Positions 4,950 through 50,671 of a stretch of DNA of 64,000 bases are shown here, piece after piece. Every line of letters starts with the position of its first letter. The stretch's first letter is position 1. Made by a program: the position numbers and the translations under genes. Under the pieces are notes generated by a model. The model was not told the origin of the DNA. It saw nothing but the letters and a program-made list of their open reading frames with translations, and searched no databases. Source of the stretch: Malacoraja senta (Eukaryota); assembly GCA_038087875.1 (NCBI GenBank), contig CM075989.1, positions 19,408,001 to 19,472,000 of the forward strand, in the 5' to 3' direction.

Positions 4950-5085
4950 TATCAGTCTGAAAAAGGGTTTCGGCCCGAAACGTTGCCCATTTCCTTCGCT
5001 CCATAGATGCTGCTGCACCCGCTGAGTTTCTCCAGCATTTTTGTGTACCTTCGATTTTCCAGCATCTGCAGTTCCTTCTTTAACA
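4950..5085 (+). mobile_element. Penelope-derived short element, single arm, hammerhead core mutated (CTGAAAAAG)
   Basis: Matches the family ...GGGTTTCGGCCCGAAACGTTGCC...CTCCATAGATGCTGC...GCATCTGCAGTTCCTTC seen many times in the window. Confidence 0.75.
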
Positions 5086-5128
5086 CATTTCCTATCCATG
5101 TACCTGAAAATATCTTCTAAATGTTGTT

Positions 5129-5352
5129 TTTAAGAAGGAACTGCAGATGCTGGAAAATCAAAGGTAGACAAAAGTGCTGGAGAAACTCAGCGGGTGCAGC
5201 AGCATCTATGGAGTGAAGGAAATAGGCAACGTTTTCGGCCCGAAACGTTGCCTATTTCCTTCCCTTTCAGGTTTCGGCCCGAAACGTTGCCTATTTCCTT
5301 CGCTCCATAGATGCTGCTGCACCCGCTGAGTTTCTCCAGCACTTTTGTCTAC
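5129..5352. mobile_element. Palindromic Penelope-derived mini-element with 15-bp TSD
   Basis: Inverted arms, flanked by CTTCTAAATGTTGTT at 5114-5128 and 5353-5367. Inserted in a CR1 3' fragment. Confidence 0.85.
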
Positions 5353-5663
5353 CTTCTAAATGTTGTTATTGTACCTGCCACAACTACTTCCTCTGGCATC
5401 AAAGAACCTCTATTTCTGTGCCTGACTCCCATGTTTTAAGTTGCTGCAGATTTGGTCAGTTGAACTGAAATAAGGATGATCGTGCAAGATGTTGGAGGGC
5501 ATCTTGCATCAGCCCCAAACTTGGTGGGTTGTGGTCTCCCACTGCAAGACGCTCCCCATAACTAAAGGCTGGCATTGGCCGTTGTTCAGGGCCATGTGTT
5601 GAAGGACACAGTAGAGCCAATGTGGTTACCTTGAAGAGAATGAGAATAGATTACACCTACCTT

Positions 5664-6081
5664 CACTGGAGTTTAGAAGGATGAGGGGCAAATCTTATAG
5701 AAACATATAAATTTATAAAAGGACTGGACAAGCTAGATGCAGGGAAAATGTTCCCAATGTTGGGCGAGACCAGAACCAGGGGCCACAGTCTTAGAATAAA
5801 GGGGAGGTCATTTAAGACCGAGGTGAGAAAAAACTTTTTCACCCAGAGAGTTGTGAATTTATGGAATTCCCTGCCACAGAGGGTAGTGGAGGCCAAGTTA
5901 CTGGATGGATTTAAGAGAGAGTTGGATAGAGCTCTAGGGGCTAGTGGAGTCAAGGGATATGGGGAGAAGGCAGGCACGGGTTATTGATAGGGGACGATCA
6001 GCTGTGATCACAATGAATGGCGGTGCTGGCTCGAAGGGCCGAATGGCCTCCTCCTGCACCAATTTTCTATGTTTCTATGTT
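5664..6081 (+). mobile_element. CR1-type LINE 3' fragment
   Basis: ...TRGHSLRIKGRSFKTEVRKNFFTQRVVNLWNSLP... followed by 3'UTR and a (TTCTATGT)n tail. Confidence 0.9.
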
Positions 6082-6256
6082 ACCGGATCTCCCGGTTGCT
6101 GCTTTAATTATGCTTCCCATCCCAACACAAACCTTTCTGTCCTCCGGTCTCCTCCATTGTCAGAGCGAGGCTAAACGCAAATTGGAGGAACAGCAACTCG
6201 TATTTCGCCTGGGCAGCTTACAGCCCAGAGGTATGAATATTGATTTCTCTCACATT
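6082..6256 (+). mobile_element. Penelope-like element, GIY-YIG endonuclease C-terminal remnant
   Basis: PDLPVA...GLLHCQSEAKRKLEEQQLVFRLGSLQPRGMNIDFS is the typical end of a PLE ORF. Homologous to 46590-46770 (minus). Confidence 0.8.
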
Positions 6257-6599
6257 AATGGAGCATTAGTTTTTGTTCCGCTGGATTTCTCTCCCCTTTG
6301 CAGCATTGAATTTGCTTTCAGTAAATAACTGATTGTCTTGCCTCTATCCAAAGACCAACAATAACAATGAACAGGTACGCCTACCATTTGGTAACTTCAT
6401 AATCGTTGCTGCATCGTGCTATAATTCCACACACGACTCAATCACTTCCCATACTCCAAACATCAATCCCACTAAAAATATCTCTCTCCCTTTTAAAAAT
6501 AATTGCCATGATATTAAATGCAACATCAAGGGAGTGAGCTACTGTGACAGACAAGCATTCCTGCCCATATGATCTTCCACAAAGCATCGAACACCTCGA

Positions 6600-6748
6600 T
6601 AGACATAAGATGCTGGAATAACGCAGCGGGACTTGCAGCGTCTCTGGAGAGAAGGATGGGTGACGTTTCGGGTTGAGACCCTTCTTCAGAGATGCTGCCT
6701 GGGTCCATATTCAGTGTGAACCAGCATCTACAGTTCCTTCTAACACAT
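6600..6748. mobile_element. Penelope-derived mini-element, partly palindromic, minus-strand hammerhead motif at ~6658-6690
   Basis: GTGACGTTTCGGGTTGAGACCCTTCTTCAG. Flanked by the near-TSD GAACACCT(C/A)GAT. Confidence 0.75.
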
Positions 6749-7224
6749 TGAACACCTAGATTATACGCACACTAATCCATGTCTGCAGTTTCTGCAAGGC
6801 ATTGAAGGTGGAGGGCCAGAGTACATTTACAACAAAATCCAAATTAAAATAGCAGCAAGTACAATTCACTTAGACACCACTAACGAGAGCAAAGATTGGT
6901 TAAATATGCCATGTGCCCTGATAGAATACTGTCCCTTTCTATATTTTTTAAATTCCATGTCTTAATAGAACAGAAAATAAAGCTCCCTAAATCATCTCTC
7001 CACACTCCAGCATATGGATGTGTTCTGCCAACCAATATATCAGCATTTGGTGATCGGTATTGGTAGTGCTTTTTCTGGTGGACAAAAAGGAGCCAGTATG
7101 CATGATTTATGAACAGGTGTATCAAATGGAAAATGATAATAATGACATGTAATCTTATTTTTTTGAAATTGATGTGCAAATACACCATGTCAGTGAGGAC
7201 CATCTCTCAAAAAAGGACCAGATA

Positions 7225-7490
7225 TTGGTTTATTGTTGTCACGCCAGAGTCCCGGGTTTGATCCCGACCATGGGTGCTGTCTGTACAGAGTTTTTACGTT
7301 TTCCCTGTGATCGCATGGGGTGCTCTGGTTTCCTCCCACATTCCAAAGATGTGTAGGTTTTAGATTAATTGGCTTCTGTTAGTTGCCCCGTGTACATAGT
7401 GTGCTAAAGTAGGATAATATAGAACTAGTGCACGACTGATCATTGATCGATGGGTCTAAGGGCCCTTTTCCACATGTTTCTTCTGAACTA
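7225..7490 (+). mobile_element. tRNA-derived V-SINE (HE1-like)
   Basis: B-box-like CCGGGTTTGATCCC, then the V-domain core GGGTGCTCTGGTTTCCTCCCACATTCCAAAGATGTG. Confidence 0.75.
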
Positions 7491-9159
7491 CACGTGGACT
7501 GGAATGTGAAGCTGAGGTTACAATCAGATCAGCCATGATCTTACTAAATGCTAAAGCAGGCTTGAAGATCCAAACGGCTTCTTAATTCATTTGACATGAT
7601 TTTGTTTCCAGCATCTGCAGTTTGGCTTTGTAAATCTAGAGTACCATGTACATTTCCGGTCACCATGCCAGCGGGAGAATATGCTTGGGGCAAGATCGGA
7701 CTTTACAGATATTTGGAAGTTGCAATATGGACCGTGGCGACTCTCTGCCTGCTGTTCCAGAAGAGGATCTATTGTACTCGTGTATAGTAAGATTGAACTG
7801 GACAGTATGCAGAGCACACATTTTGCTGTATATTTATTGACCAGAAAATAAATAAACTAAACTAAAAGAGATTTACAAGGTTAGATGTAGAAACAAGGAA
7901 CTACGGATGCTGGTTTACGAGAAAAACAAGACAGTGCTGGAGAAACTCAGTGGGTCGGGCAACATCTTTGGAGAACATCCTGATTCTCCAGAGATACTAT
8001 CTGACCCATTGAGTTACTTTGGCATTTTGTGTCTTAAAAAAAAATTTTTTTTTTTAATTTACAAGGCTGTTGGCCTGCTTGAGGAATTTTTGCTACAATG
8101 GAAATACTGGCTTGATTGGAACTGATTTATTAGGAACAGAGACATGGGGAGAATTAACACAGGTCTTTAAAATTGACACTCTTTGATAGAGAGGAGCAAG
8201 GATCCATTAAGGAGGTCAATAATGAGGGAGCATGGATTTAACTTAATTAGTGGAAGGGTTAAGAGAAAAAGATTTTCATCTCGAGATGGATGAGGGTTAG
8301 AACTTAACACCTCTGCTGGTGGTGGAGATAAAAAACCTATCAAGTTTAAAATGTCACCGAGCCCAACAGCAGGGAAACAGGCCCCTTGGCCCCATAGTGA
8401 GGCAAGGAATGGTTAATGTAGTTTAATAATAATAAGTGTGAGGTGTTGCATTCAGGGGAAGTCAGAACCAGGGCAGGACCTTCACAGTGAACAGTAGGCC
8501 TCTGGGGAATGCTGTGGAGCAGAGGGATCTAGGAGTACAAGTTCATAGTTGCATTAAAGTAGCGTTGCGGGTAGATAGTGTGTTGAAGGCAGCTTTTGGT
8601 GGGCTGCCTTTCATCCATCACGAAGTTGAGTACAGAAGCTGCCTGCATTTGGCCCAGAGCCCACTAAACCTTCAATTATTTAACCAGGGCAATATAGATT
8701 TATCAGATGCTACCATACTCTCTCAGCATTCCCCTTCAAAGCAGCTGGCTTCCACTTTCAGATCAGTTCATTGCCAGTTCAAGATATTTTCTAAAGATCT
8801 GCTCTTGGAGCAAGTCTTTTGAACACCACGGGGCTTCTGGCAAGCTCTGTATGACTCTTGTGGCCATGTTATTTTGTGGTTCTGATTTATTATTGGAAAC
8901 AGCAGAGCACAATTTGGAGTGGGAAATAACTGCGTTGCCTTGCACCCAATTACTTACTCCCTGCAGTCAGGAAAGCTTTATGCCTGCAGACTTTCATTGT
9001 GATATCTGAAATAATTTGCAATCTGCTGACAAATACAGATGTCTCGCAGACCACGCCCAGATATTATTCTTTAGCACAAAGTAAATCTACATCAAGCGGC
9101 AATAATTGGGAAACTTCACCCTCATTTACTAATCTGGTGGAAATGTACTTTGGAGATAC

Positions 9160-9595: not shown

Positions 9596-9984
9596 CAAAG
9601 CTGGAGGGTCTGTTCTGTGCTATACCTTGTTCCAAGAGGCTGCAGATGCTGAAATCTTAAGCAAAACACAAAGGAATTCAGTGAGTCAGGCAGCATCTGT
9701 GGAGGGAATGGACAGACGATGTTTTGGGGTGGGATATTTCATCACATATTGACTCTTGCAATATTGGTTTGAATGTCATATGTCCAAGAGGAATTGGATT
9801 CATTAAAAGGTGAAACTGGGGTAGATAATTATTGAAATGTGGAGAAGTCCTTATTTGGGCGTAACATAATGAATTGGAATGTATAAGTACACCTGCAAAT
9901 CAGATCTGAAAAACTAGCCCCTACTCTGGTAAATTGGTGTTCATGTCTATGAAATGAGACCAATATTTACATAACAGCAGCTAT

Positions 9985-10180
9985 TTAGACATAAAAAGCT
10001 GGAGTAACTCAGCAGGACAGGCAGCATCTCTGGAGAGAAGGAATGGGAGAAGTTTCAAGTCTCGACCCAAAACATCACCCATTCCTTCTCTCCAGAGATG
10101 CTGCCTGTCCCGTTGAGTTACTCCAGCTTGTTGCACCTATCTTTGGTTTAAACCAGCATCTGCAGTTCCTTCCTACACAC
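9985..10180. mobile_element. Palindromic Penelope-derived mini-element
   Basis: Inverted arms GCTGGAGTAACTCA...CAGCATCTCTGGAGAGAAGGAATGGG and its reverse complement. Near-TSD CAGCTA(T/C)TTAGA. Confidence 0.8.
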
Positions 10181-10404
10181 ATCAGCTACTTAGATTTTAT
10201 TTTCCAAGTGGACATTTGAGACAAAGACTAACAAGAACATTCAAATAGTAGTTAATCCTAGAATTTTTACCAAAGGTGCCTCGGGGGTGTTGTGGAGCAG
10301 AGGGGTCTTGTAGTACAAGTACACAGGTGCTGGGGAAAAGTTGTCTTGAACCTGGACTTTCAGGCTCCTGTACCTTCTTCCAAATGGTAGTAGTGAAATG
10401 TATA

Positions 10405-10500
10405 TCAGTCTGAAGAAGGGTTTCGGCCCGAAACTTTGCCTATTTCCTTCGCTCCATAGATGCTGCCGCACCCACTGAGTTTCTCCAGCACTTTTGTCTA
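10405..10500 (+). mobile_element. Penelope-derived arm with hammerhead motif, inserted in a Rex1 3' fragment (~10325-10560, minus)
   Basis: AGTCTGAAGAAGGGTTTCGGCCCGAAACTTTGCC. Flanks resemble the reverse complement of the Rex1 3' end at 890-1000. Confidence 0.75.
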
Positions 10501-10561
10501 TGTAGTGAAATGAGAGCGTGGCTAGGGTAGTGTGTGTTATTGAGGATGCTGGCTGCCTTTT

Positions 10562-11677: not shown

Positions 11678-12150
11678 TAGAAACATAGAAAATAGGTGGA
11701 GTAGGCCATTCGGCCCTTCGAGCCTGCATCGCCATTCAATATGATCATGGCTGATCATCCAACTCAGTATCCCGTACCTACCTTCTCTCCATACCCCCCG
11801 ATTCCCTTAGCCACAAGGGCCACATCTAACTCCCTCTTAAATATAGCCAATGAACTGGCCTCAACTACCTTCTGTGGCAGAGAATTCCAGAGATTCACCA
11901 CTCTGTGTGAAAAATGTTTGTCTCATCTCGGTCCTAAAAGACTTCCCCCTTATCCTTAAACTGTGACCCCTTGTTCTGGACTTCCCCAACATCGGGAACA
12001 ATCTTCCTGCATCTAGCCTGTCCAACCCCTTAAGAATTTTGTAAGTTTCTATAAGATCCCCCCTCAATCTTCTAAATTCTAGCGAGTACAAGCCGAGTCT
12101 ATCCAGTCTTTCTTCATATGAAAGTCCTGACATCCCAGGAATCAGTCTGG
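11678..12150 (-). mobile_element. CR1-type LINE 3' fragment
   Basis: TRLIPGMSGLSYEERLDRLGLYSLEFRRLRGDLIETYKI...TRGHSLRI and a TAGAAACATAGAAA tail. Confidence 0.92.
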
Positions 12151-13124
12151 TTTGATTTGTACATTGATTTGAACATTGATTTGTAACAATTTTGTCATTT
12201 CCTTTAGCATAAATGAACAACAGAAAATCTTACCTTGTGTGACTTGATTGCAGGCTTTTCCCACTTCTGAACCAAGGTCAGAATACACCAGTGTAAAGGC
12301 CAGTAAATTCTCATCACATATTCCAAGACTCAGTCTTGTTTAGTCCAAGGATGGATTACATTTTCACAGAGCTTCCAAACAGCTCAACATTCACCCTCCT
12401 CTTCCTTTACTTTGGGGAAACAGTGCAGAAGGCGATCAAATCAAGAAGACAATTGCATGAAGTGTTTGCACATGGAAGGCAATTGGTTTCAATCAAGGCT
12501 TATGATTAAAAGGTTGGTTTAAGGGAATAACATAATTAAGCAAAGAGCAGATGAAGTGTTTACTCATGTCAAAAACATGCTGAAAGAATGCATTAAAGTG
12601 TCAAATTATTTTCCATTTCTTAAACATCTTTGACCGAGGCGTGTGAACTGGATTGCACATTATTTAAAATAAAAACAGAAAATGCTGGAAATATTTAGCA
12701 AGTCAAACTACATCCTCAGGAAGAGAAACAAAGTTAATGTTTAACTGTTTCTTTTCCCACAGAGTGCTGAGTATGTCCAGCATTTTCTGTTTTGCATTTT
12801 AAATAACATGCAATGTAGTTCTTGAGCTTCAGGCACAAATGATTTAGAAATGGAAAACATTTAGACATCTAAAAATCTTCACAAGTTTATTAATTTAAAA
12901 CTTAAAATAAGAACTTTCTAAAAGTTTTAAGAGATTGTTTGATAGTTTCTATGAACTTCCAATAGCTCCCGAGAATACTTACCTGCAGGTCATCTAATTT
13001 TCTGATTTTGGCCGGGATCTAGTTTTGACAGATCGTCTGATTATTCCTTGAATGTATTAGTAAAACAAAGGGAAAAGTCAAGGAAAAACTTAAAGAAATT
13101 ATCCACGTTATGGATTGGAACATT

Positions 13125-13629: not shown

Positions 13630-14582
13630 CGAAGGGATTCAAAGTAACATTAGCAAATTTGCAGATGACAGAAAGCTGGGTGGTAGTGTGAACTGTGAGG
13701 AGGATGCTATGAGAATGCAGGGTGACTTGGGCAGGTTTGGTGAGTGGGCAGATGCAGTTTAATGTGGATAAATGTGAGGTTATCCACTTTGGTAGCAAAA
13801 ACAAGAAGGCAGATTATTATCTAAATGGTGTCAAGTTGGGAAAAGGGGAAGTACAACGGGATCTGGGGGTCCTTGTTCATCAGTCAATGGAAGTAGGCAT
13901 GCAGATACAGCAGGCAGTGAAGAAAGCGAATGGCATGTTGGCCTTCATAACAAGAGGAGTTGAGAATAGGAGCAAAGAGGTCTTTCTGCAGTTGTATAAG
14001 GCCCTAGTGAGACCACACCTGGAGTATTGTGTGCAGTTTTGGTCCCCTAATTTGAGGAATGACATTCTTGCTATTGAGGGAGTGCAGTGTAGGTTCACAA
14101 GGTTAAATCCAGGGATGGCGGGACTGTCGTATGCTGAGAGAATGGAGTGGCTGGGCTTGTATACTCTGGAATTTAGAAGGATGAGAGGGGATCTTATTGA
14201 AACATATAAGATTATTAGGGGTTTGGACACGCTAGAGGAAGGAAACATGTTCCCGATGTTGGGGGAGTCCAGAACCAGGGGCCACAGTTTAAGAATAAGG
14301 GGTAAGGCATTTAGAATGGAGATGAGGAAACACCTTTTCCACACAGAGAGTTGTGAGTCTGTGGAATTCTCTGCCTCAGAGGGCGGTGGAGGTCGGTTCT
14401 CTGGATACTTTCAAGAGAGAGCTTGATAAGGCTCTTAAAGATAGCGGAGTCAGGGGATATGGGGAGAAGTCAGGAACGGGGTACTGATTGTGGATGATCA
14501 GCCATGATCACATTGAATGGCGGGGCTGGCTCGAAAGGCCGAATGGCCTACTCCTGCACCTATTGTCTGTTGTTTATTGTCT
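13630..14582 (+). mobile_element. CR1-type LINE RT/C-terminal fragment with 3'UTR
   Basis: ISKFADDRKLGG, MQFNVDKCEVIHFG, LYKALVRPHLEYCVQFWSP and RRMRGDLIETYKI. Ends in a (CTATTGT)-type tail. Confidence 0.93.
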
Positions 14583-15409: not shown

Positions 15410-15660
15410 TAGAAACACAAGAGACTGCAGATGCTGGAATCTTGAGCAAAACACAAAATGCTGGAGGAACTCAGTGGGTCAGGCAGAATCTGGGGGGGAG
15501 ATGGGCAGATGACATTTTGGGTCAAGACCCTCTTTCTGGCTTCTTCAGACTGAAGAAAGATCCTGACTCGAAATGTCGTCTGTCCATTCCCTCCCCAGCT
15601 GCTGCCTGCCGCTGAGTTCCTCCAGCACTGTGTTTTGCACATGCATTTGCAGTTTTGTAA
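15410..15660. mobile_element. Diverged palindromic Penelope-derived element
   Basis: Centre reads TTCTTCAGACTGAAGAA (head-to-head hammerhead cores). Inverted arms GCTGGAGGAACTCAG and CTGAGTTCCTCCAGC. Confidence 0.75.
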
Positions 15661-16764: not shown

Positions 16765-17585
16765 AACATAGAATATAGAAATGCAGGAACAGGCCCCACG
16801 GCCCACAATATCTGTGCTGAACATGATGCCAAGCAAAACTAATCACGTTTGCCTGCACGTGATCTATATCCCTCCCTTTCCTGCATATCCATGTGCCTAT
16901 CTAAAAGCTCTTAAATGCCACTATTGTAACAGCCTCCACCACCACCCATGGCAGTGTTTTCCAGGCACCCACCACTCTCTGTGGAAAGAACTTGCCCTGC
17001 ATATCTCTATACTTTACCCCTCTCACCTTAAAGCTACTACGCCTTCCTGTCTTTGAGACTCCCACTCTGGGATAAAGATTCTGACCGTCTACCTAATCTA
17101 GGCCATAATTTATACACTTCCATCAAGTCTCCCCTCAACCTCTGATGCTCCAGAGAAAGCAATCTTCATTTGTCCAATCTCTTCTTATCGCTAATAGCCC
17201 TCAATCCAGCAGCATTCTGGTCAAGACAGAATGTGTAGGAAGGAACTGCAGATGCGGGTTTAAACCGAAGATGGACACAAAAAGCTGGAGTACCTGAAAC
17301 ATCACCTATTCCTTTTTCTCCAGCGATGCTGTCTGACCCCCCTGAGTTTCTCCAGCTTTTTGTGTCAAACATTCTAGTAAACCTCCTCTGCACCCTCTCC
17401 AAAGCCTGCCCATCCTTCCTGTAATGGTGCAATCAGAACATCATGCAATACTCCAAATTCCGCTTGGCCAAAGTCAGATTGAGCTGTGACGTGGCTTCCT
17501 GACTCTTATACTCAATGCCTTGAGCAATGAAGGTGAGCATACCATACCATCACAAGCCTCTCTATTTACTGGCGTTGCCATTAAG
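16765..17585 (-). mobile_element. CR1 3' fragment interrupted by a Penelope-derived palindrome (~17225-17368)
   Basis: HYRKDGQALERVQRRFTRM. The insert is flanked by CATTCTGGTCAA and CATTCTAGTAAA. Confidence 0.75.
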
Positions 17586-19417: not shown

Positions 19418-19614
19418 GTGTAAGAAGGAACTGCAGATACTGGTTTACACCGCAGATAGACACAAAATGTTGGAGTAACTCAGCGGGACAGGCAGCATCT
19501 CTGGAGAGAATGAATGGATGACGTTTCGGGTCGACCATGGACATCACCCATTCCTTCTCTCCAGAGATGCTGCCTGTCCCGCTGAGTTACTCCAATATTT
19601 TGTGTCTGTCTTCT
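19418..19614. mobile_element. Palindromic Penelope-derived mini-element with 14-bp TSD
   Basis: Inverted arms. GTGAG(A/G)TGATAGTT at 19404-19417 and 19615-19628. Confidence 0.85.
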
Positions 19615-24847: not shown

Positions 24848-24992
24848 TCAGATCACATCTAGATGTGCATATTTTGGACCAGTCTTTCTTACTTTTCAAC
24901 TAAGGTCCCAATTAGTCATTTAACGATTAGAGATTTCATTCACAAAGAACAATTTGTCCATTTCTGGCTGATTACTGGCAACAACTTAAATG

Positions 24993-37444: not shown

Positions 37445-37565
37445 AGAAAGAACTGCAGATGCTGGAAAAATCGAAGGTAGACAAAAATGCTGGAGAAACT
37501 CAGCGGGTGAGGCAGCATCTATGGAGCGAAGAAATAGGTGACGTTTCGGGTCGAGACCCTTCTTC
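37445..37565 (-). mobile_element. Penelope-derived arm with 11-bp TSD (duplicate at 59751-59871)
   Basis: AAAGGTGTTTA at 37434-37444 and 37566-37576. The element is truncated inside the CTGAAGA box. Confidence 0.85.
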
Positions 37566-38584: not shown

Positions 38585-38790
38585 AAACTCAGCGGGTCGG
38601 GCAGCATCTATGGAGCGTCTGAAGATGGGTTTCAGCCCGAAACGTTGCCTATTTCCTTCGCTCCATAGATGCTGCTGCACCCGCTGAGTTTCTCCAGCTT
38701 TTTTGTGTACCTTCGATTTTCCAGCATCTGCAGTTCCTTCTATAACACAGCATCTATGGAGCGAATGGGCAGGCTGGGTGGGACCCTTCT
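38585..38790. mobile_element. Palindromic/rearranged Penelope-derived element with + strand hammerhead motif (duplicate at ~60891-61096)
   Basis: GTCTGAAGATGGGTTTCAGCCCGAAACGTTGCC. Confidence 0.8.
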
Positions 38791-40828
38791 TCCGACTCAG
38801 TACATTTCAAAGGGATTGGGGTTGTGTGTCCTTTCACCCGATGGACTTTATCAACAGCCCGGTTGTCGACCCGAGCACAATGTAACAGATCACACCTCCA
38901 TAAATAGCAGTTGAATCATTTAAGGCCGCATAAAACCCCCCAATACTTCTAAAAGAAGCGATCAAAAATGTAATGCAAAATAAGTACTAATTCACCATTC
39001 CAAAACTACGGTCCAAGTAGTCTATAAAAGGGGCAGGTCTACTAGCTGGACGTGAAATCGAGAGGAAATTTGCCTTGAAAACTTTTCTACCCGGTAACTC
39101 TCCAGATGTGACATTTTGTTTCCTATTGTTGAGATCCAGAATGAAATACAAATTCTACAGTTTTATAGTAGTTCTCAGAACAGACCCGGCTAATTAATTC
39201 GGGGCCGCGTTGGCGTTGATCGAGGATCTGCGTTAGTTTACAAACACGGTTGTAAGGCAACAGCACGAACAAGTCCTCATCTTAAATGGCAGCACGAACA
39301 AAACGGAAACAGCCATGCTGTAATATCCAACACAAGGACTCATCTACACTCGCAGTTAAGCAATTGTCAATGTTTAAGATGCACAAAGCGGACATGACAA
39401 CGAGATAGGGACCCGAGCATTGTTCAATTAAATAAACCCAGAAAAGAATCGTTTAACTTGAAACATCGGACATAATAATACAGATTCATGAATGGCGAGT
39501 GGGTTGAAAAGCATGGGGCGAGAGTGTGCCATTATTGGTTGCCGCGCTGTTCCCCCAATTAGCCCAGCTACCCCACACTCCTCCCATTAAAACACAAAGG
39601 TCGGTAAGTCAATGAGCATTTTCCCGTGGCAATTAGAGGGCCGACTACTGACAACAGCGGCAACTGAAGGGTTACTTTTTGGAGAGCGTTAACTGGTATC
39701 CAATTCAGAAGCAAGGAGCACATGGTTCTTCCGTAAACCAAGCCGTCATAAGTTTATGTTAAATTGTACGTTTCACAAGAAGACGATTGTGTTCATTCCA
39801 CCTGCCTTGTTGCAAACATAAACACAACATGGCTGTTACTGCGGTCGGCCTGTTGGTTAGTTATTATTGCACTACTTTATCAAGGCTGTGAAACTCCGTG
39901 CGCGCTTAAAACAGGATAGCATTTCAAAGAACCTCAATCAATTTGCAATTATCAACGCGAGCCTCTTTGCGGGTGTACCACACCGATGTAGTGAAGAATG
40001 TGCTGCGAGAACAAAATCGAAAACACGACTCCTCAATCAATAAATGGGACTGAGCAGTTCAGCGTCTCACGCTGTTGCTCAAAGCCATTCAATTATATTT
40101 TAAATGGTTTATTCACCACTAACTTACTGGGTATTCATTTTATCTATTTGTGGAGTGTAATTTGTATCGTAATAAACCATATTTCCATTAAAGTGGCTTC
40201 GTTATCATTGTTTGTTTTTAAAATATCACATATCCTCTCATTTGTTGCTTGGCTACTTCATCGTTGAGTAAGTACCTCTCTCTCAACTAATGCAAGGATC
40301 TCCCATTTCACCCGCACCAGCTAAAGGGGAGAGGTCTACCTTATGGGCCGTCACCACCCTTGTCAACTTGGGTACAGAACTCGGAATAACACCATCAACT
40401 ACTGCACAACTAGCAATCAGAAGAGTAAAGTGATCATTTTGCAACTTGATCTGAAGCATGCATTTGAATCGAGACGAGTTGTATATTCAGTCGGCGCTAC
40501 ATTTTGTACAGGAAAAACCAGTTGTGAATAAAATCGTACGCCTATCACACCCACTAGTCACATTAATTAAGCAATTGTGAAATTTGGAATCATCGAAACT
40601 TGCCATCGCCGATACTGTTATCTTTAACATTGCAATATCGAACAGGGGCCTGCTTCGCATTTTAACCCACAATTTTTACTCAATAACTATACTATATATA
40701 CACCGATACTATAAAAGAAAGCGAATATAACACACTCTAAAGAGGAATACAGCAACATGTCTGAGACACATGCCTGAAAAACAGTTGAACATTGCAGATT
40801 ACAAAATGTTTAGTTCATAAACGATTAC

Positions 40829-40939
<111 letters not shown>

Positions 40940-41494
40940 CGCCAGCGTTCAATACCAAACTTAACACAGTTAATGACTAAAACACATCATCACCGCTTCT
41001 TGGATAAGGAACAAATAGGTTATCATAAGAACCTACTTCTAAAGCAACATCGAAACGCTCGTTTAAAACGCGAGTTCACCATTCAGATCATGTGCTGAGT
41101 GCACTTCGTGTAACCCCAAAAGGTTGTTGACGAAATCTTTATGTACTCTGTTTCAATAACAAATATATCTTAAAAATGAAGAAAAAAATGAATATAAACT
41201 ACGTTTATATTTCCTGCTTTATATATAACTGCTGAACCACTGCAAAACATACTTTGAAATGATAACATGGCAGATCCACACTGGGATACCTATTGCATCT
41301 GATTGTGGGTTGACTCGCACGCTTTTACAACCCTATATTTTAATATCCACCAGCTAAGAAACGGGGGCATACAGCAACCCAGCGCTTTGCAAACCGTGCA
41401 TGCAATTTTAGGATATGGCATGAGTGTGTGAAGTTATCGCTCTGTGCGTTCCATACGCCTTAATAACAGTGTTTTGCAGCAGATACGCGTACAT

Positions 41495-41650
41495 AATAGA
41501 CACAAAAAGCTGGAGTAACAGCGGGTCTGAAGAAGGGTCTCGACCAGAAACGTCACCCATTCCTTCTCTCCAGAGATGCTGCCTGACCCGCTGTTACTCC
41601 AGCTTTTTGTGTCTATCTTCGGTTTAAACCAGCATCTGCAGTCCCTTCCG
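41495..41650. mobile_element. Palindromic Penelope-derived element with + strand hammerhead motif (duplicate at ~63812-63970)
   Basis: GGGTCTGAAGAAGGGTCTCGACCAGAAACGTCACCC, flanked by the direct repeat ACATAAT. Confidence 0.82.
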
Positions 41651-42399
41651 ACATAATTGAACACAATAGTCTCTGTCTGGCTTGTTCAAATTTACACGAG
41701 GAAATCCTTCAGTTGGTTTTCTCATCTTGGTTCAAAGAAACATACCTCAAAATGTGTACATTAAAATATATATATATATACTATTAAACCGTTAACACAT
41801 GATTGAGGTATATTCGCTTTAATTAAATTATTGTAATGAAACGATCAGGAAATGAACGAGACATTACGGGCGCTGTACGTTATGTAGGGCAGTCAAATCG
41901 TCACACGCATCTTTCATCTACTACTTTGTCATTTGTATGCGGGGCATATCTGAAGTAGATATGAAATATTATAAGCTGCCATCTGGCACGTCACTTCCTG
42001 TTTTTAAACCATTCAAAAAAGTTTGCAAGTTTGCCTGTTTCTGTACTTCTTGGAAGCTGGGAGCAGAGTTCATGAATTATATCTCCTGATATCATGTCAA
42101 GCGGGATCATATTGCTTAATCCTTCGTGTACTGGCGCCGCCATCAACCGGCCACTTCTCCACTAATTCTGCTTCCCTCAGTTATAAAACCCCCTTCCCCA
42201 GTTCATACTTTATCTCTGGCTCATACACAAATAGGGTTTAAGATTTTAGTTGGCAGCTTGCATTAAAATAATTCCAATCGTCGCCCCTCCCCCCCCCCTT
42301 GCTATCATCGTTGCTTTACAATTCCATCCTTACTCAGACCATATCAAAACATGTTCTCAGCTTCTCTTCTTTCTCTCCCCCTCCCCACCTCTCTCCCAC

Positions 42400-43250
42400 T
42401 GCACCCCCCCCCCCCCCATGCAGCCCGGATGTTGACTTCTATGTACAAGGGTTGAAATGCGCCGTTCTTTCGCCCTAACACCAGCGTGATGCAGCAATAC
42501 TCTCTGTGTCTCTCTCAGCGTCCACGCCACACACCCCAGCCCGGCCCGGCCCGGCCCAGCCCAGCCAGAGAGCGAGAGGGGCGGGCGGTCGCCCCCGTTG
42601 TAAACGCGGCGGGGTGTCATACACACAAGTGGGAATCCAGCCGATGGCGAATGGCAATCGCGCCCCCCCACCACCTCTTGAATTCCTGCAATGCTGACTT
42701 GACATATACTTACCGAAATCCACGCTAAAAACAAATTTGCAGCCGTTTCGGGGCATGTTGCACCTTTTTTCTAAAAACCCCATCCAGCAATATTCAAATA
42801 TCGGATTTGTTCCAAGGAAAATAGATCTGCATAATTTCAATGGGAAGACGGGCCGCTCTTCCAAGGCCCTTCTCTTGGTCGGAGAAGGGGGAGGGGGAGG
42901 TGCAGAAGGGAGTAGAGGGTTCGGGTGCGGGATGGTTGCTAAAAATAAACTTTCTCAGCTTGTCCGGGAGTCGCCTGTTCGATGCCCGCGGCCGGCTAAT
43001 CACAACACCTCTCCGGCCAGTCCTCTGTACTTTGAGGGAAGGACCAGGCGTCCCCTTGCCCTCTCTCCCCACCTCCCGCCGTCCCATCCTATCTCTCGCC
43101 CTTCTGGCTTTCGAAACCATCGCCGAAAAAAAAATCAAGAAAATAGGAACAAAATTAAGAAAAAAAAAATCAGAGTCCAGCCTTAATCCTTGGCCGTGGG
43201 GTGAAGAGCCTGTTTTGGGGCCAGTATATCCTCGCAATGCCACTTGCATT
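42400..43250. promoter_or_regulatory. CpG-island-like GC-rich region (candidate promoter or regulatory element)
   Basis: High GC and CpG, GGGGCGGG GC box at ~42578-42585, (CCCGG)n and no repeat homology. Confidence 0.5.
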
Positions 43251-45549
43251 CGAATAGCTCTGGTCTGTTATGTACCTCGGTGCCTATGAAAAGGAATCAG
43301 TATGCAAATCGTTCCAGTTACAATCGAAAGGTTCGATCTGTTGGAGTTCACTAACGGAAGCTGATGTCAGCTGTTCCCGGATTAGCCGAGAAATATCCAC
43401 CCAGTCAAATAGGCTTTTAAATTCCTTGTTAATTAAAAAACACAGAATTTGCAACATGTCTCTGCCCCCACCCTCCTGAAGGCCGGATTACCCCTTTAAG
43501 GCAATTATCATTCTGCAGGTGTAATGTGCAATGAGGGTTAGGTGCAGTGGAACAAGCGCTTGCATTTTCTACAGGGCGTTTTTGAACGCCAGCTCCTTTT
43601 CAGAGTCCCTGCACCCGCGAATCCAAACGCTGACCGATCAATATGTGCAGTAAATGAACACAATGGGTGGGGGGAGAAATAGTGTTGCTGTGGTTTCTGG
43701 TTTATCATGTACGCTCTTGCCTCTGTACCTGGCCCAACGTTGCACCACCTCAAACCTGGACAGATACGGCTCTGATAGCCGTAACCTGCAGCCCGTGCCT
43801 TCTGCCATAGGCTAAATTTGGCCCCTGTTGACTCCTCTCCCTACATGACCAGAAATCAAATAAAGATCCGCATGCAATATCGGCGGGCGTGCAGGCGCTC
43901 GCTCAGGCGACAACCCATGCTCTAAACCAGAAACGGCGATTTGAATTTTCCTTTACCACCCCCCCCCTCCCCCATCCCCCACTCATCTTAGTGATATGGG
44001 TGTGTAAATCTGGTGTGGGGTAAAAGATCAACAATGGACCCGGCCTACACAATGTTTGTTATCAAAAGGGATAATTCATTGATTATATTTTAATGTAAAA
44101 AATACTTCTGAGCAAAATCCTTGGTCATTAATATCAAACCTGCCTTTCCCAATCGCTCCTGAAGCCGCACAGTCTTGTAAATTAACCACCCAACGGGCCT
44201 TCCGTTGCAAACGCACCCGGAGCCACCAAGGCGTTTTTAAACAGAAAGTTTTCGATTCAAAAAAGCATCTGATGCAGAAAGCAAAAAAACAACTATTGTG
44301 CATTTTCGCAATAACTCTCCATAAACACCTCTTTTGAAATAACACATTACTTCACAATTGAATTATTGAAATACAATGTATTTTTTACAAATTTTTACAA
44401 TGTGCAGTTGTCACTATATTTGTTTCGTGCTTTTATTAAAGGGTTGGACTGATCACATTCGGGAATTTTACACTTAGCACCTTGCATTTTTACATTTAGC
44501 ATCTACATTTGACATTTTTATTCAAGCAAATAACAGCGGTATTCTCTTTCCGCTGACTGGTTAGTACACGCAACAAAAGCTTTTCACTGTACCTCGCTAC
44601 ACGTGGCAATAAACTCAACTGTAAAACTCTGATCGCGTTTACCATTTTTGCATTTACAATTTGAGGAAATCTCAGTGTTTCTCTATGGCACCCGCTGCAT
44701 TCGCTTGGACGACTAATGTGTACAATGTGGATGGAACCCCGCAGAGCTCTGCTTGCATCGTCCTTGTCCGAGAGCAGGGGCCACAGGTTTAACCTCTTTA
44801 TTGACAACTGACCTATCCACGCAGGGAACACGGAGCCGACATACTGCCAAGCACGCGTCTCCCTTTTTGCTAAGCTAATCGCTTGCAGCGAAGCAGCACA
44901 TCTTAGTAGCCTTACACAATCCATTCTTCTATCAGCAATAACGCAGTTTAAATACGTTCGAAGCCAAACTGCTATGTGTGTGAGACGAGGGCGATTTGTT
45001 TTGATGATTTGTTGGCGTTATAGGTGACTTGCCTTGCCTTTTCGCGGCCGGCATGTTGATTTGGTTCAGTTGCAGCTTATGACTTAGCCCGACCATCTGT
45101 CATTCAATTAACGTTTCGGGGCAGCTGATCTGTAACCAGCGGGGCCAGCGACCCCAGGACAAACCCTAAAGCTGGCGGAGAAAGGCGACTAAAGTTCAAA
45201 TGTTAAACGCCTGGCACTTCGCCGGGGCTGGGCAGGTCAGAACATTTGCCTATGTAAAGCCTGCATCGAGTCCCCCGGGAACACGACACCCGGCCTCGAT
45301 TTAAACCCATTGTAACACTTTGTTCTTGCACATCACACACACACTTTCAGCAAACAACAGATTACAGGATTTGAATCTTTCTTTTAATGCCACCTTTAAA
45401 GATATATTAACTGTGCTGTAGATTGGAGCAACATATTTTCATCCCTCCATTTATGTTACATGGAGTTAATTCTTCTAAACGGAGATACGAGAATCATGTC
45501 CAGAGTGTTTTATTGTCACATATCCTGAAACGGGACGATTAAATTCTAG

Positions 45550-45840
45550 TGTGTAGGAAGGAACCATGCTGGAGTCAACCGAAAATAGACACAAAAAGCT
45601 GGAGTAACTCCGTGGGTCCGGCAGCATCTCTGGATAAAAGGAATAGGTGACGATTCCGGATCGAAACCCTTCTTCAGACTAACTCGCTGAGTTACTCCAG
45701 CTTTTTGTTGTTGTCTATCTTCGATTAAATTCTTATTTGCAGGCGCACAACATATAGGTAAACGCCTATTCTTTTTCTCCAGAGATGCTGCATGACCCAC
45801 TGAGTTACTCCAGCTTTTTGTGTGCATCTTCGATGTAAAC
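45550..45840. mobile_element. Two adjacent Penelope-derived elements
   Basis: Family arms in both orientations. Degenerate minus-strand hammerhead at ~45647-45680. Confidence 0.75.
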
Positions 45841-46179
45841 ATAGTACTCTGTAAACATTACAATAAGCAACAACAAAAGTTCGGTACAGTATATGACCCC
45901 CCCCCCACCAATAATAGTGCAAAGATTAAAAAAAGAATGTCCCCCAAGTCTATGTAGTTCAGAGCTTAGTTGGAGGTTTCAGTGTTTAATAGCCTGGTGT
46001 TTGGGGAAACCGAAAGACTGAATCATTTCAAATTAATTAAACCGATTTGAAAGTGTTTCAGCTGATTTGTCAGAAAGAGGGGAAAAAATGTCCGTCGCCA
46101 TAATCGGAATCCACGTGACTGCATCCTCAGGTGTTAGGCGTCTAATCGTGAAATCAAGCAACACTTAAATATAAACAAA

Positions 46180-46770
46180 AGATAGACACGAAAATGCTGG
46201 AGTGACTCAGAGGGTCATTCAGCATCTCTGGAGAGAAGGACAAGTTAACGTTTCGTGTCGAGACCTTTCTTCAGGCTAGAGTCAGGGGAAAGGGAAACGA
46301 GACTCCTGCACCTATTGTCTCTATATAGGAACGGGGTATTGATTGGGGATGATCAGCCATGATCACATTGAATGGCGGTGCTGGCTCGAAGGGCCGAATG
46401 GTCTATTCCTGCACCTATTGTCTATTGAGTGATATAGACGGTGATGTATAGAGATATCGAACAAATGAATGAAAGATATGCAAAAAAGTAACGATGATAA
46501 AGGAAACGGGCCATTGCTAGCTGTTTGCTGGGTGAGAACAGGAACCTGGTGCGACTTGGGTGGGGGAGGGATGGAGAGAGAGGGAATGCAAGTGTTACTT
46601 GAAGTTAGAGAAATCAATATTCATACCACTGGGGTTGTAAGCTGCCCAAGTGAAATACGAGACGCTGTTCCTCCAATTAGCCAGTAGCCTCGCTCTGACA
46701 ATGGAGGAGGCCTAGGACAGAAAGGTCAGTGTGGGAATGGGAAGGGGAACTAAAGTGTTTGGCAACCGGA
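46180..46770 (-). mobile_element. Penelope-like element 3' end: GIY-YIG C-terminus, 3'UTR and hammerhead-bearing terminal repeat, interrupted by a CR1 tail (~46303-46425)
   Basis: Reverse translation of ~46600-46770 gives PVAKHFSSPSHSHTDLSVLGLLHCQSEATG*LEEQRLVFHLGSLQPQWYEY (frameshift before MNIDFSNF). Downstream lies CTGAAGAAAGGTCTCGACACGAAACGTTA and the family arm. Confidence 0.85.
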
Positions 46771-47037: not shown

Positions 47038-47768
47038 GTGTCGGAAGGAACTGCAGATGCCGGTTTACACCGAAGACAGACACAAAAATGCAGGAGTAAC
47101 TCAGCGGGACAGGCAGCATCTCTGGAGAGAAGGAATGAGTGACGTTGCGGGTCGAGACCCTTCTTCAGACCAAGTCAGGGGGAATGGAAAACGAGAGGCA
47201 TAGATGGTGATATAGAGAGATATAGAACAAATTAACAATGACCCGAAACGTCACCCATTCCTTTTCTCGGGAGATGCTGTCTGACCCGCTGAGTTACTCC
47301 AAAATGTTGTGTCGGTCTTCGGTCTAAACCCCAACCCTAAAATTAAACAAAAGTGCTGGAGAAACTCAGCGGGTGAGGCAGCATCTATGGAGCGAAGGAA
47401 ATAGGCAACGTTTCGGGCCGAAACCCAAGGGTTTCGGCCCGAAACGTTGCCTATTTCCTTCGCTGAGTCTGAAGAAGGGTTTCGGCCCGAAACGTTGCCT
47501 ATTTCCTTCGTTCCATAGATGCTGCCGCACCCGCTGAGTTTCTCCAGCACTTTTGTCTACCTTCGATTTTCCAGCATCTGCAGTTCCTTCTTGAACCTAA
47601 AATTAAACACATGTAATCTACAACCTGACTCAATCTGCATCGCCCTGATTTGAAAATCGACCACTTTTGCCTACTCCTTCTCTCCAGAGATGCTGCCCGA
47701 CCCGCTGAGTTACTCCAGCTTTTTGTGTCTGTCTTCGGTGTAAACCGGCATCTGCAGTTCCTTCCTGC
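47038..47768. mobile_element. Cluster of three Penelope-derived elements (47038-47330, 47345-47592, 47665-47768)
   Basis: Multiple inverted arms. The middle element is flanked by the direct repeat CCTAAAATTAAACA. Confidence 0.85.
47466..47500 (+). ncRNA. Minimal hammerhead ribozyme motif (UUCG-loop subfamily)
   Basis: AGU-CUGAAGA-A-GGGU(UUCG)GCCC-GAAAC-GUU-GCC. Confidence 0.65.
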
Positions 47769-49184
47769 ACTTTTCCCCCCAACATTTGTTTTAACAACAT
47801 ACCCAAATTTTGGGTGTAAAAACAATCGCCCTCGGTGGAAGGCGGATTAAGGTTGCAATGTTGCCGAGAAAAAACCCATTCAGTTTCCATATCCTATTCA
47901 TTCGCCACGATTTTTTTTAGCCTTTCAGCCGTCATTTACTATCTGCATTTATAAGGAAGTGAACATCTTCTTAATGACATGCGATCAAAGCCTTCTCCTC
48001 GAGTACTGAGCCATATCATTATTAATATTCTAAAATACAGCTGGCCTTCGGAAATTCGTAGGATATTATTCAATTTAATAGCTTCTGAAGATATTGAAAA
48101 ATCAGCAGAAATTACTTCAGGTCACGTGGAAGGTCTCACTAGTTTCACTGTCACAAAATCCATCCTGATTCAATATCCCCTCACATCCAATTCTCGGGAT
48201 TGTTAGAATGATAATGCGGGCTCGTTTTAAGCACCTTTGCATTTAGATCTGGACAGCATCACAATCCGCTGGAGAAAGTGAAAGGAAGTTGATAGCGGAG
48301 CATAACTGGAGTCAGAAATGACGGCTTCTCATTACTCGAGAATGAATCCTCATATTGACGTTGGCTCACATGACACAAATGATTGCACTTAGATCCAATT
48401 TTATTGGAACAAACTGTTCTTAATAACCACGGGGAGAAAAAAAAGAAGCAAATCCACGTTTGTCCCATCTCAAGTTCTCATTAATAATATATAATTAAAC
48501 AATTTTTAACTTTAGCAAAGTAAGCGTTTATTAAATCTCGCACTAAGGCTAGATGCAGTGCGTCATATGTACGCCGGGCTGTGAGATAATGTACTCCATA
48601 AGAGCGGAAAGAGGCAAAGGCTGGAAGATATGACTAGAGACTAATTTTCACCGTCTCTCTTTCCACTCTCAAACTACACGGTCCTTCGCAGCTCCAAAGA
48701 CAAGATCATTTCACTGTTAGTTATTGAGCTAATACGAACTTTCATCACTCCGGTTGAATAATACTATGAATGTTTAATTCAAAGTCACTTAGTTTGAATT
48801 ATCTGATAATTCATTTTTAACGCACTGCGTTGGTGCCTTCCTGCGTTATTTATACTACTTCATTCAAGTTACTGAATAATTCACTTTTTAGGGCACCGGG
48901 AGTTTAGAATTATCAGGAGTAGACTATATTTCAAATTGCAGTCATTTGGATTATAACGCCCCACGATATACAGCAAAGCAGATGCTAAGAACTAACAATA
49001 CGTCCAGCACTCCATTACTGGTGCAGTGTGAACGGTTCATAGAAATAACACTTTTCTCTGAAACCTCTTACTAAGACCCAGTTTCTTAACCATTCTCAAC
49101 CTCTTTTTTTTCAGATTGCGACAGCATTTATTGACCAGACTTTATTGACATTGCCCTAGAAATGAATGACTTCCTGGACCTAGA

Positions 49185-49410
49185 AAGACACAAAATGCTG
49201 GAGTAACTCAGCGGGACAGGCAGCATCACTAGAGAGAAGGGATGGGTGACGTTTCGGGTCGAGCCCCTTCTTCAGACTGAACGTCACCCATTCCTCCTCT
49301 CCAGAGATGCAACCGGTCCCGCTGAGTTACGCCAGCATTTTGTGTCTATCATTCGGTTTAAACTGGAGAACATGGATCGGTGATGTTTCTGGTCGCGACC
49401 CTTTTCAGAG
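49185..49410. mobile_element. Palindromic Penelope-derived element with minus-strand hammerhead motif (~49244-49279)
   Basis: GGGTGACGTTTCGGGTCGAGCCCCTTCTTCAGACT followed by the inverted arm. Confidence 0.8.
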
Positions 49411-49466
49411 GTCAGGGAGGTTTCATTGGCAGATGGATGGAGTCAGTGAAAAGGTGTTCAACCACA

Positions 49467-49600
49467 GAGTTGAGTTGAGTTGAGTTTATTGTCACGTGTA
49501 CCGAGGTACAGTGAAAAGCTTTTGTTGCGTGCTAACCAGTCAGCGGAAAGACAATACATGATTACAATTGAGCCATTCACAGTGCACAGATACATGATAA
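49467..49600 (-). mobile_element. Rex1-type LINE 3' end with (GAGTT)n tail
   Basis: GAGTTGAGTTGAGTTGAGTTTATTGTCACGTGTACCGAGGTACAGTGAAAA. Related copies at ~16350 and ~49890. Confidence 0.65.
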
Positions 49601-50112
49601 GTTGACCAGGGATGGGTGTGCATTGTTGACACATGGAGCAGACCAGGAACAGCAGATATCCCCAACTGATTCAATTAGTGAACCAGTTGGGTTTTTACAA
49701 CAATCCTATAGTATGTGTTCATTAGTCATGACTAAAGGTTATTATCTACTTACAATATTTTGCTTATTAACTGTTTAATTTATAAAAATTATGTTAAATG
49801 AAAGGTTATTAACAATTTAAAAATGTCATGTCACGCTGGGATTTGAAATCACATCTCTGGACTGTTCATTCCAGGTAATTGGAATTGGCTTATTATTGTC
49901 CAGTTTACCGAGACACAATGAAAAACTCTTGTTTGCGTGCTATCCCATTGAAGCAAATCATACAATACAAGAGTAAAATACAGCAGGTATTTCATAGAGG
50001 GAGCAGAATATGGTTTTACAGCATTGTAATATTACAGTTACAGAGAAAAGTGCAATGTCCGCAATGTAGGTTGGATTACTAGTGGGGTAATTTAACTGCT
50101 GCCTTAGTACCT

Positions 50113-50292
50113 ACGTGGGTTTCTCCGGGTGCTCCAGTTTCCTCCCACACTCCAACGATGTACAGGTTTGTCGGTTAATTGACTTTGGTAAAATTGTAAA
50201 TTGTCCCTTGTATGTGTGTAGGATAGTGTTAGTGTGCGGGGATCCCTGGTCGGCACGGACTGTATCTTGCTGTATCTCTAAACTAAACTAAA
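50113..50292 (+). mobile_element. V-SINE 3' half
   Basis: GGGTGCTCCAGTTTCCTCCCACACTCCAA core and a (TAAAC)n tail. Confidence 0.8.
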
Positions 50293-50323
50293 AGTACCAT
50301 TACCCAGTAGGGTTGAGATGATG

Positions 50324-50510
50324 GTAGACAAAAGTGCTGGAGAAACTCAGCAGGTGCAGCAGCATCCATGGAGCGAAGGAAATAGGCAATGTTTTGGCCC
50401 GAAACATTGCCTATTTCCTTCGCTCCATAGATGCTGCTGCACTCGCTGAGTTTCTCCAGCACTTTTGTCTACCTTCGATTTTCCAGCATCTGCAGTTCCT
50501 TCTTAAACAA
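50324..50510. mobile_element. Palindromic Penelope-derived element with 15-bp TSD
   Basis: AGGGTTGAGAT(G/A)ATG at 50309-50323 and 50511-50525. Near-perfect inverted arms. Confidence 0.87.
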
Positions 50511-50574
50511 AGGGTTGAGATAATGTTCTGTTTATATTAATGTAAGACTGAGAGACGCGAGTTATAAAGCTGAT

Positions 50575-50671
50575 GATGGACACAAACTGCTGGATTAACT
50601 CAGCAGGTCAAGCAGCATCTATGGAGGAAAGGAATCGGTGACGTTTCGGATCAAGACCCTTCTTCAGACTG
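50575..50671 (-). mobile_element. Penelope-derived arm ending at a hammerhead motif
   Basis: GGTGACGTTTCGGATCAAGACCCTTCTTCAGACT. Confidence 0.8.

Follow-up and report, generated by a model that had tools for sequence, protein, structure and literature searches.

The window considered here is a 64,000-nt stretch of the Malacoraja senta genome (assembly GCA_038087875.1, contig CM075989.1, positions 19,408,001 to 19,472,000, forward strand), which is dotted with short repeat arms that bear, where intact, the motif of a minimal hammerhead ribozyme. These arms are very probably the 3′ termini, composed of a pseudo-long terminal repeat (pLTR) with its hammerhead and an optional tail, of autonomous, endonuclease-positive Penelope-like retrotransposons (PLEs) encoding a reverse transcriptase (RT) and a GIY-YIG endonuclease (EN). 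The short copies would then be very short, likely dead-on-arrival insertions made by the element's own RT/GIY-YIG protein. One feature of this ordinary kind of element is left unexplained, namely a pile-up of 5′ ends at the AGT that precedes the CUGA box. Positions within the arm are numbered from the C of CTGA (+1).

Repeat arms in the window and in the genome

A search profile made from six window arms gave 55 matches in the whole window. Positions 36348-58453 are repeated directly after an N gap (58454-58653, 200 N) with 99-99.6% identity, the second copy occupying 58654-64000 and continuing past the window into G000:C13 (loci L074 and L076), and this 22-kb repeat is likely a haplotype or assembly duplication. 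Window positions 58451-64000, which duplicate 36348-41681, and the neighbouring locus L074 were left out of all counts. Once the duplicated part is removed, 46 arms (at least 15 bits) remain in 21 clusters, which is consistent with the “about 25” elements of the first-pass annotation of this DNA. The eight copies that it had listed as the clearest were all recovered on the strands and at the coordinates it gave; however, only five of them (33768, 47466, 38617, 6658 and 50637) combine an intact core with a 4-bp stem II and a palindromic helix III, since a stem II pair is broken in 49244 and 41523 and the palindrome is broken in 10407.

Several copies are bounded by target duplications. The hairpin analysis delimited two insertions with one tailed arm, at 9978-10194 (12-bp duplication, 9978-9989 and 10183-10194) and at 19404-19628 (14 bp, 19404-19417 and 19615-19628). 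A further hairpin with one tailed arm, folded at stem II, lies at 50309-50525 and has a 15-bp duplication (50309-50323 and 50511-50525). Among the solo arms, the tail-less copy at 10390-10512 (+) starts 9 nt before CTGA and has an 11-bp duplication (10390-10400 and 10502-10512), and the tailed copy at 37434-37576 (−) starts inside the CUGA box, also with 11 bp (37434-37444 and 37566-37576). Arms with an intact core were found by the profile and a motif check at 6590-6690 (−; helix I of 1 bp), at 33706-33803 (−; solo, tail-less, starting at AGT-CTGA, helix I of 2 bp) and at 50561-50671 (−; solo, starting at CAGT-CTGA).

Two copies reach further upstream. The subfamily-b arm found by the profile at 4939-5087 (+) comprises about 19 nt of 3′ untranslated region (UTR), a hammerhead motif with one core change and a tail, and is 94.6% identical to the tandem element L062 over 166 nt. 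At 46175-46765 (−) lies a longer, 5′-truncated PLE copy with a broken GIY-YIG C-terminal coding segment, a 3′ UTR into which another repeat has inserted, the hammerhead motif and the arm. Hence the earlier description of the elements as non-coding stands in part, but not for this copy, which contains the end of a GIY-YIG reading frame.

The remaining copies were detected by the profile. Head-to-head hairpins lie at 5125-5357 (truncated arms, an internal 39-nt duplication and a fold point at stem II), at 15429-15635 (old, with its junction at the TCAG-W-CTGA near-palindrome) and at 22670-22841 (old), and shorter head-to-head pairs at 7931-8034 (without hammerhead) and 17260-17371 (truncated). 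The hairpin at 38577-38798 has an intact core in its + arm and is accompanied by a further fragment, as is the hairpin at 49170-49409; in the hairpin at 41493-41655, the 4-bp helix I is an accident of the inversion junction. Arms are clustered in threes at 24990-25233 (decayed) and 45567-45837, and a nest of six at 47045-47765 includes the intact copy 47466 and a hairpin of which one arm keeps about 60 nt of 3′ UTR. Single arms on the minus strand lie at 9644-9743 (old and decayed) and 27870-27952 (without hammerhead core).

The repeat is not confined to the window. Across the 1.94 Gb of the genome, a 27-nt core pattern occurs 31,994 times without mismatch and its reversed control not once, far more than chance would give. 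An unselected sample of 1.13 Mb, made of the window, 7 flanking and 100 spaced 10-kb stretches and over-representing small chromosomes, contains 573 arms, which implies several hundred thousand arms genome-wide. In this sample, 336 arms bear the core and 68 of them are fully intact.

The parent element and its hammerhead motif

In longer copies, the arms continue upstream into protein-coding sequence. The C-terminus of a GIY-YIG domain lies directly upstream of the arm in 2 of the first 10 genomic matches, and in locus L061 a frame of 932 aa without stops encodes PLE-type RT motifs, then a C-X4-C-XX-C linker and GIY-YIG, and is followed by a 3′ UTR and an arm. Locus L062 is a seamless tandem in which the end of an open reading frame (ORF), UTR, arm, tail and the start of the next ORF follow one another. 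In tandem copies the arm therefore also precedes the ORF, whose ATG is located about 170 nt past the CUGA box (at L221, the ORF opens with an ATG at +171), and the pLTR formed by tandem or partial-tandem copies is seen in L062, in L006 and in the segment maps of 54 loci chosen for a tail-to-ORF junction. When all retrieved loci are taken together, selected and unselected, an endonuclease-end motif is found at most 700 nt upstream of 81 of the 497 core-bearing arms, in a few cases only via a neighbouring copy. These 81 arms form six UTR clusters of 5-21 members each, with 3′ UTRs of about 95 to 230 nt that all end in a pyrimidine tract and (T/C)CAGT. In at least six subfamilies a GIY-YIG stop codon and a 3′ UTR precede the arm, and wherever long copies sufficed for an assembly, the subfamily continues upstream into the 3′ UTR and the GIY-YIG C-terminus. 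Protein searches of the genome gave 93,137 first-look candidates for the endonuclease domain and 15,696 for the RT, which are not copy numbers. The position of the arm downstream of RT and GIY-YIG frames bears out the earlier proposal that the repeats are Penelope-derived.

The Pfam GIY-YIG match of the element protein (E=4e-4) is below the cut-off, and homologues of the protein carry RVT_1 and GIY-YIG. Among named proteins, the closest are those of bamboo shark, whale shark, stingray and devil ray (66-73% identity), which makes an elasmobranch host likely. Translations of L061-L069 contain a CX2-5CxxC-type linker between RT and EN and a CCHH finger inside GIY-YIG. A linker before GIY-YIG was reported to mark the Neptune and Nematis clades and to be absent in Penelope and Poseidon (PMC8557442), hence the C-X4-C-XX-C motif points to an element of Neptune/Nematis type, an assignment based on the linker. 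A PDB sequence search with the RT-EN protein gave 0 matches. Literature searches returned no description of this elasmobranch PLE family, which Repbase or Dfam, both outside the scope of the searches, may well catalogue, and a preprint on shark genome size does not mention Penelope. In addition, one deleted PLE copy (430-aa frame) recurs near-identically with the same GC-rich flank on dozens of small unplaced contigs (L025-L027, L041-L060), and is a large segmental or satellite repeat.

The six long-copy consensuses all contain the core boxes of the hammerhead, the bulged A (9/10.1), the G10.1-C11.1 pair and the palindromic 15.2-16.2 (ACGU); in one of them, the outer pair of stem II is G-U. 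Of the 68 intact arms, 49 have a 2-bp helix I, and in none does it exceed 3 bp. A comparison with 80 related PLE loci from metagenomes yielded 26 motifs, which are distributed over 23 of the loci and lie on the sense strand in 24 cases. Their helices covary freely, and helix I measures 3-5 bp in every one of the 24 sense motifs. Because covarying homologues occur in related PLEs, the arm motif is, judged by comparison of sequences, a genuine homologue of the PLE minimal type I hammerhead, and the core features together with these relatives uphold the first-pass identification of the motif as a minimal type I hammerhead of Penelope type whose vestigial helix III is palindromic. The metagenome loci L336, L339 and L355 are related PLEs with a U3-A8 core variant of the motif. 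An Rfam scan gave no hammerhead match at E≤1, its 40 matches being all of microRNA or snoRNA type and below gathering scores; this negative is uninformative, since minimal variants were defined with custom descriptors.

How active such a motif could be is another matter. Folding prefers other hairpins, with predicted pair probabilities for the hammerhead of about 0.01 or less, and with so short a helix I (2 bp) the ribozyme would be expected to be weak, or to need dimer formation or help from a protein. Low or protein-dependent activity has been reported for minimal PLE hammerheads (PMC11167929, PMC4209133), and cleavage was dispensable in vitro for an anole element (PMC11167929). Between subfamilies the catalytic core is invariant, but two blocks of the arm body are equally so, and conservation at this level is therefore not peculiar to the ribozyme. 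Among individual copies, the core is no better conserved than the arm body in the four sequence groups (0.917/0.902, 0.951/0.947, 0.867/0.858 and 0.843/0.886), as expected for copies that decay after landing.

Short insertions and the pile-up of their 5′ ends

In the unselected sample, 78 of the 336 core-bearing arms extend into known UTR and 258 do not. Target duplications of the short copies measure 10-15 bp. Duplications of at least 9 bases flank 31 of the 168 short solo arms, whereas shuffles gave 1 and 4 such cases; they abut the arm, often overlapping its first bases. Adjacent arms are preferentially head-to-head: 100 of 149 neighbouring pairs have this arrangement, compared with 42 of 250 pairs of distant arms. 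Furthermore, 30 of 76 complete hairpins have a target duplication, with a mode of 14 bp, against 0, 1 and 2 in the nulls. Exactly one arm is tailed in 55 of these 76 hairpins, both arms in 4 and none in 17 (p=3e-5); 115 of 294 solo arms are tailed. Of 90 hairpin junction signatures, 83 are distinct, the commonest junctions being at two self-complementary spots, TCAG-W-CTGA and stem II, the former with 2,557 exact inverted junctions genome-wide. The 3′ ends of the arms fall into two groups (about +83 to +102 and about +116 to +136). The fixed end of the element is its 3′ end, about 95 or 130 nt downstream, which matches the two RT start sites and the tail described for PLEs. In the anole PLE, reverse transcription starts internally at two sites that lie downstream of the hammerhead and bound the tail, and both strands are extended (PMC11167929). 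PLE insertions were further reported to be 5′-truncated, to form partial tandems, to lie next to an inverted copy, to have palindromic junctions and, in some cases, to carry a tail of 30-40 nt (PMC8557442, PMC3846280, PMC8969392), an anatomy in which the unique junctions, single tails and target duplications seen here find their place.

These observations also bear on the first-pass view of the arms as a distinct non-autonomous family, which is refuted by the ORF-bearing upstream continuation, the 83 distinct junctions out of 90 and the lack of private variants in short arms. None of 77 variants separates short from long arms after correction (smallest p 0.0016), a comparison weakened by decay and by the 98-nt length, and the best match of short arms is found equally in the short and long pools (0.448 and 0.449). 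An independent family of SINE or MITE type (short interspersed or miniature inverted-repeat elements) was rejected on the same grounds, having neither a fixed structure nor variants of its own. A non-autonomous mini-family, in which solo arms have an internal promoter of their own at TCAGT and their transcripts are mobilised again by PLE proteins acting in trans, in a SINE-like manner, would account for the sharp common 5′ end and for the excess of short arms over long ones (258 against 78). It is in line with the report that cis-acting pLTR sequence is sufficient for mobilisation in trans (PMC3846280), with the description of PLE-derived tandem retrozymes (bioRxiv 10.64898/2026.07.22.740005) and with arrays of 138 and 384 bp elsewhere in the genome. 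However, short arms do not cluster with one another, hairpin junctions are unique, the same pile-up recurs across subfamilies that each have their own ORF-bearing form, and the window arms are dispersed or inverted rather than arranged head-to-tail. Such a mini-family is thus improbable, and re-mobilisation of solo arms may take place at a modest level.

The pile-up itself was measured on 384 arms whose 3′ body is intact. Per nucleotide, the probability that an arm ends is 0.010-0.011 in the body, 0.007 at +26 to +33 (17/324), 0.026 at +5 to +11, 0.118 at −6 to +4 (156/218) and 0.017 further upstream. The enrichment is about 10-fold and confirms statistically the earlier remark that single arms end about 3 nt from CTGA. 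For older groups only 5 nt of upstream reference were available, which inflates the −5 bin; independently of this, the base frequencies of solo arms drop most between −3 and −4 (A 0.60, then C 0.36). The pile-up is present in tailed and tail-less arms alike, and is therefore set by sequence rather than length. Type I hammerheads cut after GUH, which here corresponds to +28/+29. The pile-up therefore lies at the AGT before CUGA rather than at the cleavage site, where 5′ ends are not enriched, and the proposal that the ribozyme boundary defines the mobilised RNA through cleavage is largely refuted, at least as the main route.

Additional information comes from the 54 loci with a tail-to-ORF junction, in which cDNAs approach the arm from the ORF side. 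Of the 22 segments that reach the 5′ edge of the core, 20 run at least 30 nt further upstream and 2 stop at −4/−5; one more starts at +9. In contrast, directly started arms of the same group stop at the pile-up in 39 of 57 cases and pass it in 18 (p=2e-6). In the two that stop, L251 and L274, a second unit also starts at −3/−4, in one case behind an A-rich linker. A simple stall should affect both kinds of cDNA, so the read-through from the ORF side favours an RNA 5′ end, hinting that the pile-up marks a 5′ end at the A of TCAGT, a sequence that matches an initiator consensus. The cDNA jumps in these loci land at +173 to +307, which are likely RNA 3′ ends. Many copies in L211-L280 join this ORF start region to the 3′ part, sometimes via short A runs (L218, L272, L274), suggesting jumps of the RT onto heterogeneous RNA 3′ ends. 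A splice-acceptor reading of CAG|T was rejected, two candidate spliced junctions (two donors tried) having 0 genomic copies against 6,380 unspliced, and the case for an additional G at −4 left by a cap, seen in about 9 of 23 instances with a base other than C, was not convincing. Four sets of contigs, presumed to derive from RNA, carried no information on starts, ends or strand; in them the genomic pile-up merely reappeared as loose ends, and they were not used as evidence.

Two other origins of the 5′ ends have to be weighed against an RNA 5′ end at TCAGT. Self-cleavage by the ribozyme would agree with core boxes that are intact in all subfamily consensuses, with the covarying homologues and with two jump junctions exactly at +29. 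However, the cut-site window +26 to +33 is depleted relative to its neighbouring bins, most short arms keep the whole core, which would be absent from a cleaved 3′ product, and the 2-bp helix I, the low pairing probabilities and the dispensability of cleavage in the anole element (PMC11167929) all argue against it, so that self-cleavage is very improbable as the event that defines the mobilised RNA. A sequence- or structure-induced stall of the RT, caused for example by pairing of the cDNA at TCAG-T-CTGA or by a protein on the polypyrimidine-CAG tract, is a more serious candidate, which we consider possible, if doubtful. The site is a near-palindrome that also forms the 2,557 inverted junctions, the peak spans several bases, every subfamily has a pyrimidine tract with a terminal CAG upstream of it, and the intron of Drosophila virilis Penelope was reported to end at helix I (PMC4209133). 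Against a stall stands the difference between ORF-side and directly started cDNAs, and the missing spliced junctions count in the same direction, as do the target duplications that abut AGT directly and hence show that no exon piece is carried.

Under the reading of the arms as PLE 3′ termini, insertion could proceed as follows. The element protein would make a staggered cut about 14 nt wide, giving rise to the target duplication, and reverse transcription would begin internally on the RNA, either about 95 or about 130 nt downstream of CUGA, the tail lying between these two sites. Both DNA ends may be extended, one from each site, and the cDNAs would join by short complementarity at stem II or TCAG-T-CTGA, producing a head-to-head hairpin with one tail; if only one cDNA were kept, a solo arm would result. 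In about three quarters of the core-bearing arms the sequence breaks off no more than a few bases from AGT; the likeliest reason is that many templates have their 5′ end there, at the initiator-like TCAGT, rather than cleavage by the ribozyme, and the hammerhead would simply be carried along as part of the pLTR. A more specific version is tentative and somewhat unlikely as it stands. In it, PLE transcription starts at TCAGT and the RT primes in the 5′ pLTR as well as in the 3′ one, running off the RNA end after 95-135 nt; this strong-stop cDNA, as in long terminal repeat (LTR) elements, normally transfers to the identical 3′ pLTR to give a seamless tandem, the hundreds of thousands of solo arms and hairpins being aborted strong-stop products. 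If this were true, the genome would preserve a vast fossil archive of the intermediate steps that are missing from the picture of PLE retrotransposition, namely two-ended dimer priming at two start sites, the 14-nt stagger and strand transfer. Literature searches found no strong-stop model for PLEs and no description of the AGT pile-up.

Several points weigh against the reading of the arms as PLE 3′ termini. Random truncation leaves the sharp pile-up (156 of 218 at-risk arms) unexplained, and some “short” arms may belong to old subfamilies that lack a UTR reference, which would inflate the −5 peak. Full-length copies mostly keep upstream pLTR far above AGT, which requires read-through transcripts or strand transfer, and the start site of D. 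virilis Penelope lies well upstream, before the intron ending at helix I (PMC2377424, PMC4209133). Arms within a hairpin are not more alike (0.80) than the best other arms (0.85), and the partner was the top match in only 6 of 44 hairpin arms checked for a common template, the sequences being decayed. Subfamilies agree in 44 of 48 classifiable pairs, a concordance that shared age can explain, and 42 of 90 pairs are unclassifiable. Furthermore, 2 of about 29 jump junctions (L223 and L280) lie exactly on the cleavage site at +29, a weak hint of occasional cleavage in vivo, and in decayed sequences of 98 nt it would be hard to recognise short copies that had their own internal promoter and were mobilised again in trans.

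As a repeat, the family is ordinary, since terminal copies of PLEs that bear minimal hammerheads are widely known from animals, and such arms should not be mistaken for a new ribozyme element. Their value lies in a very large natural dataset, with thousands of measurable insertions, that bears on the integration steps of PLEs after priming and on the role of their hammerheads. The tail asymmetry, the 14-bp stagger, the lack of cut-site 5′ ends and the AGT pile-up provide direct predictions for in vitro work of the kind done on the anole element.

Genomic context and comparison with known systems

The window also contains a broken L1/Tx1-like long interspersed nuclear element (LINE) at 2571-4738 (−; RVT_1 domain, E=1.6e-40) and other LINE RT fragments, CR1-like by eye and some in long inverted pairs, at 122-511, 11861-12229, 13713-14426 and 51323-52233. 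Positions 42001-44000 are GC-rich (50% against 40%), possibly the CpG-island promoter of a host gene.

Animal non-LTR retrozymes share with the arms their derivation from PLE pLTRs and their type I hammerheads (bioRxiv 10.64898/2026.07.22.740005, PMC7229834). However, they form head-to-tail arrays with a hammerhead in each unit, whereas the window copies are solo or inverted with mostly decayed cores, and a retrozyme identity was rejected for them, no head-to-tail array being present among the 21 clusters. Arrays do exist elsewhere in the genome. Locus L237 (G000:C1:28902182-28905209) and its neighbours form a near-perfect 384-bp tandem array with 13 pattern matches, made of pLTR, hammerhead, tail, ORF start and 3′ UTR, which fits a retrozyme-like deletion derivative of a PLE, and further arrays have spacings of about 254, 275 and 299 bp. 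Locus L228 (783-2320; G000:C1 near 27817340-27818747) contains eleven identical 138-bp units running from the predicted hammerhead cleavage site to the ORF ATG, and L280 has a single junction at the base where these units start; the L228 units are possibly the trace of a cleaved, circularised RNA, or due to chance.

The motif agrees with the minimal type I hammerheads of metazoan PLEs in its CUGANGA/GAAA/UH core, 9/10.1 bulge, G10.1-C11.1 pair, palindromic 15.2-16.2 and lack of a helix III loop (PMC4209133). Helix I is typically 4-5 bp in those hammerheads, with 2 bp reported for D. virilis (PMC4209133), and here it is 2 bp, with a helix II of 4 bp. The Poseidon element PAc of Anolis carolinensis likewise has two internal RT starts bounding a tail and extends both strands; in contrast, its ORF starts in stem II (PMC11167929), whereas here the ATG follows CUGA at a distance of about 170 nt, beyond the tail, and the linker motif places the two elements in different clades. 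The C-X4-C-XX-C linker before GIY-YIG is shared with Neptune and Nematis (PMC8557442), although a (TA)n target preference is not evident among the target duplications listed here, as judged informally.

Canonical PLEs with a C-terminal EN have the same order of RT and GIY-YIG, the same pLTR with hammerhead and partial tandems, the same palindromic head-to-head inversion junctions, the same tail on one end and the same target duplications of about 10-15 bp (PMC8557442, PMC3846280). The M. senta element differs from them in that its 5′ ends pile up at one 10-nt spot, a feature not found in the excerpts of those descriptions, and in that the shortest products, arms of 95-135 nt and two-arm hairpins, dominate at hundreds per Mb.

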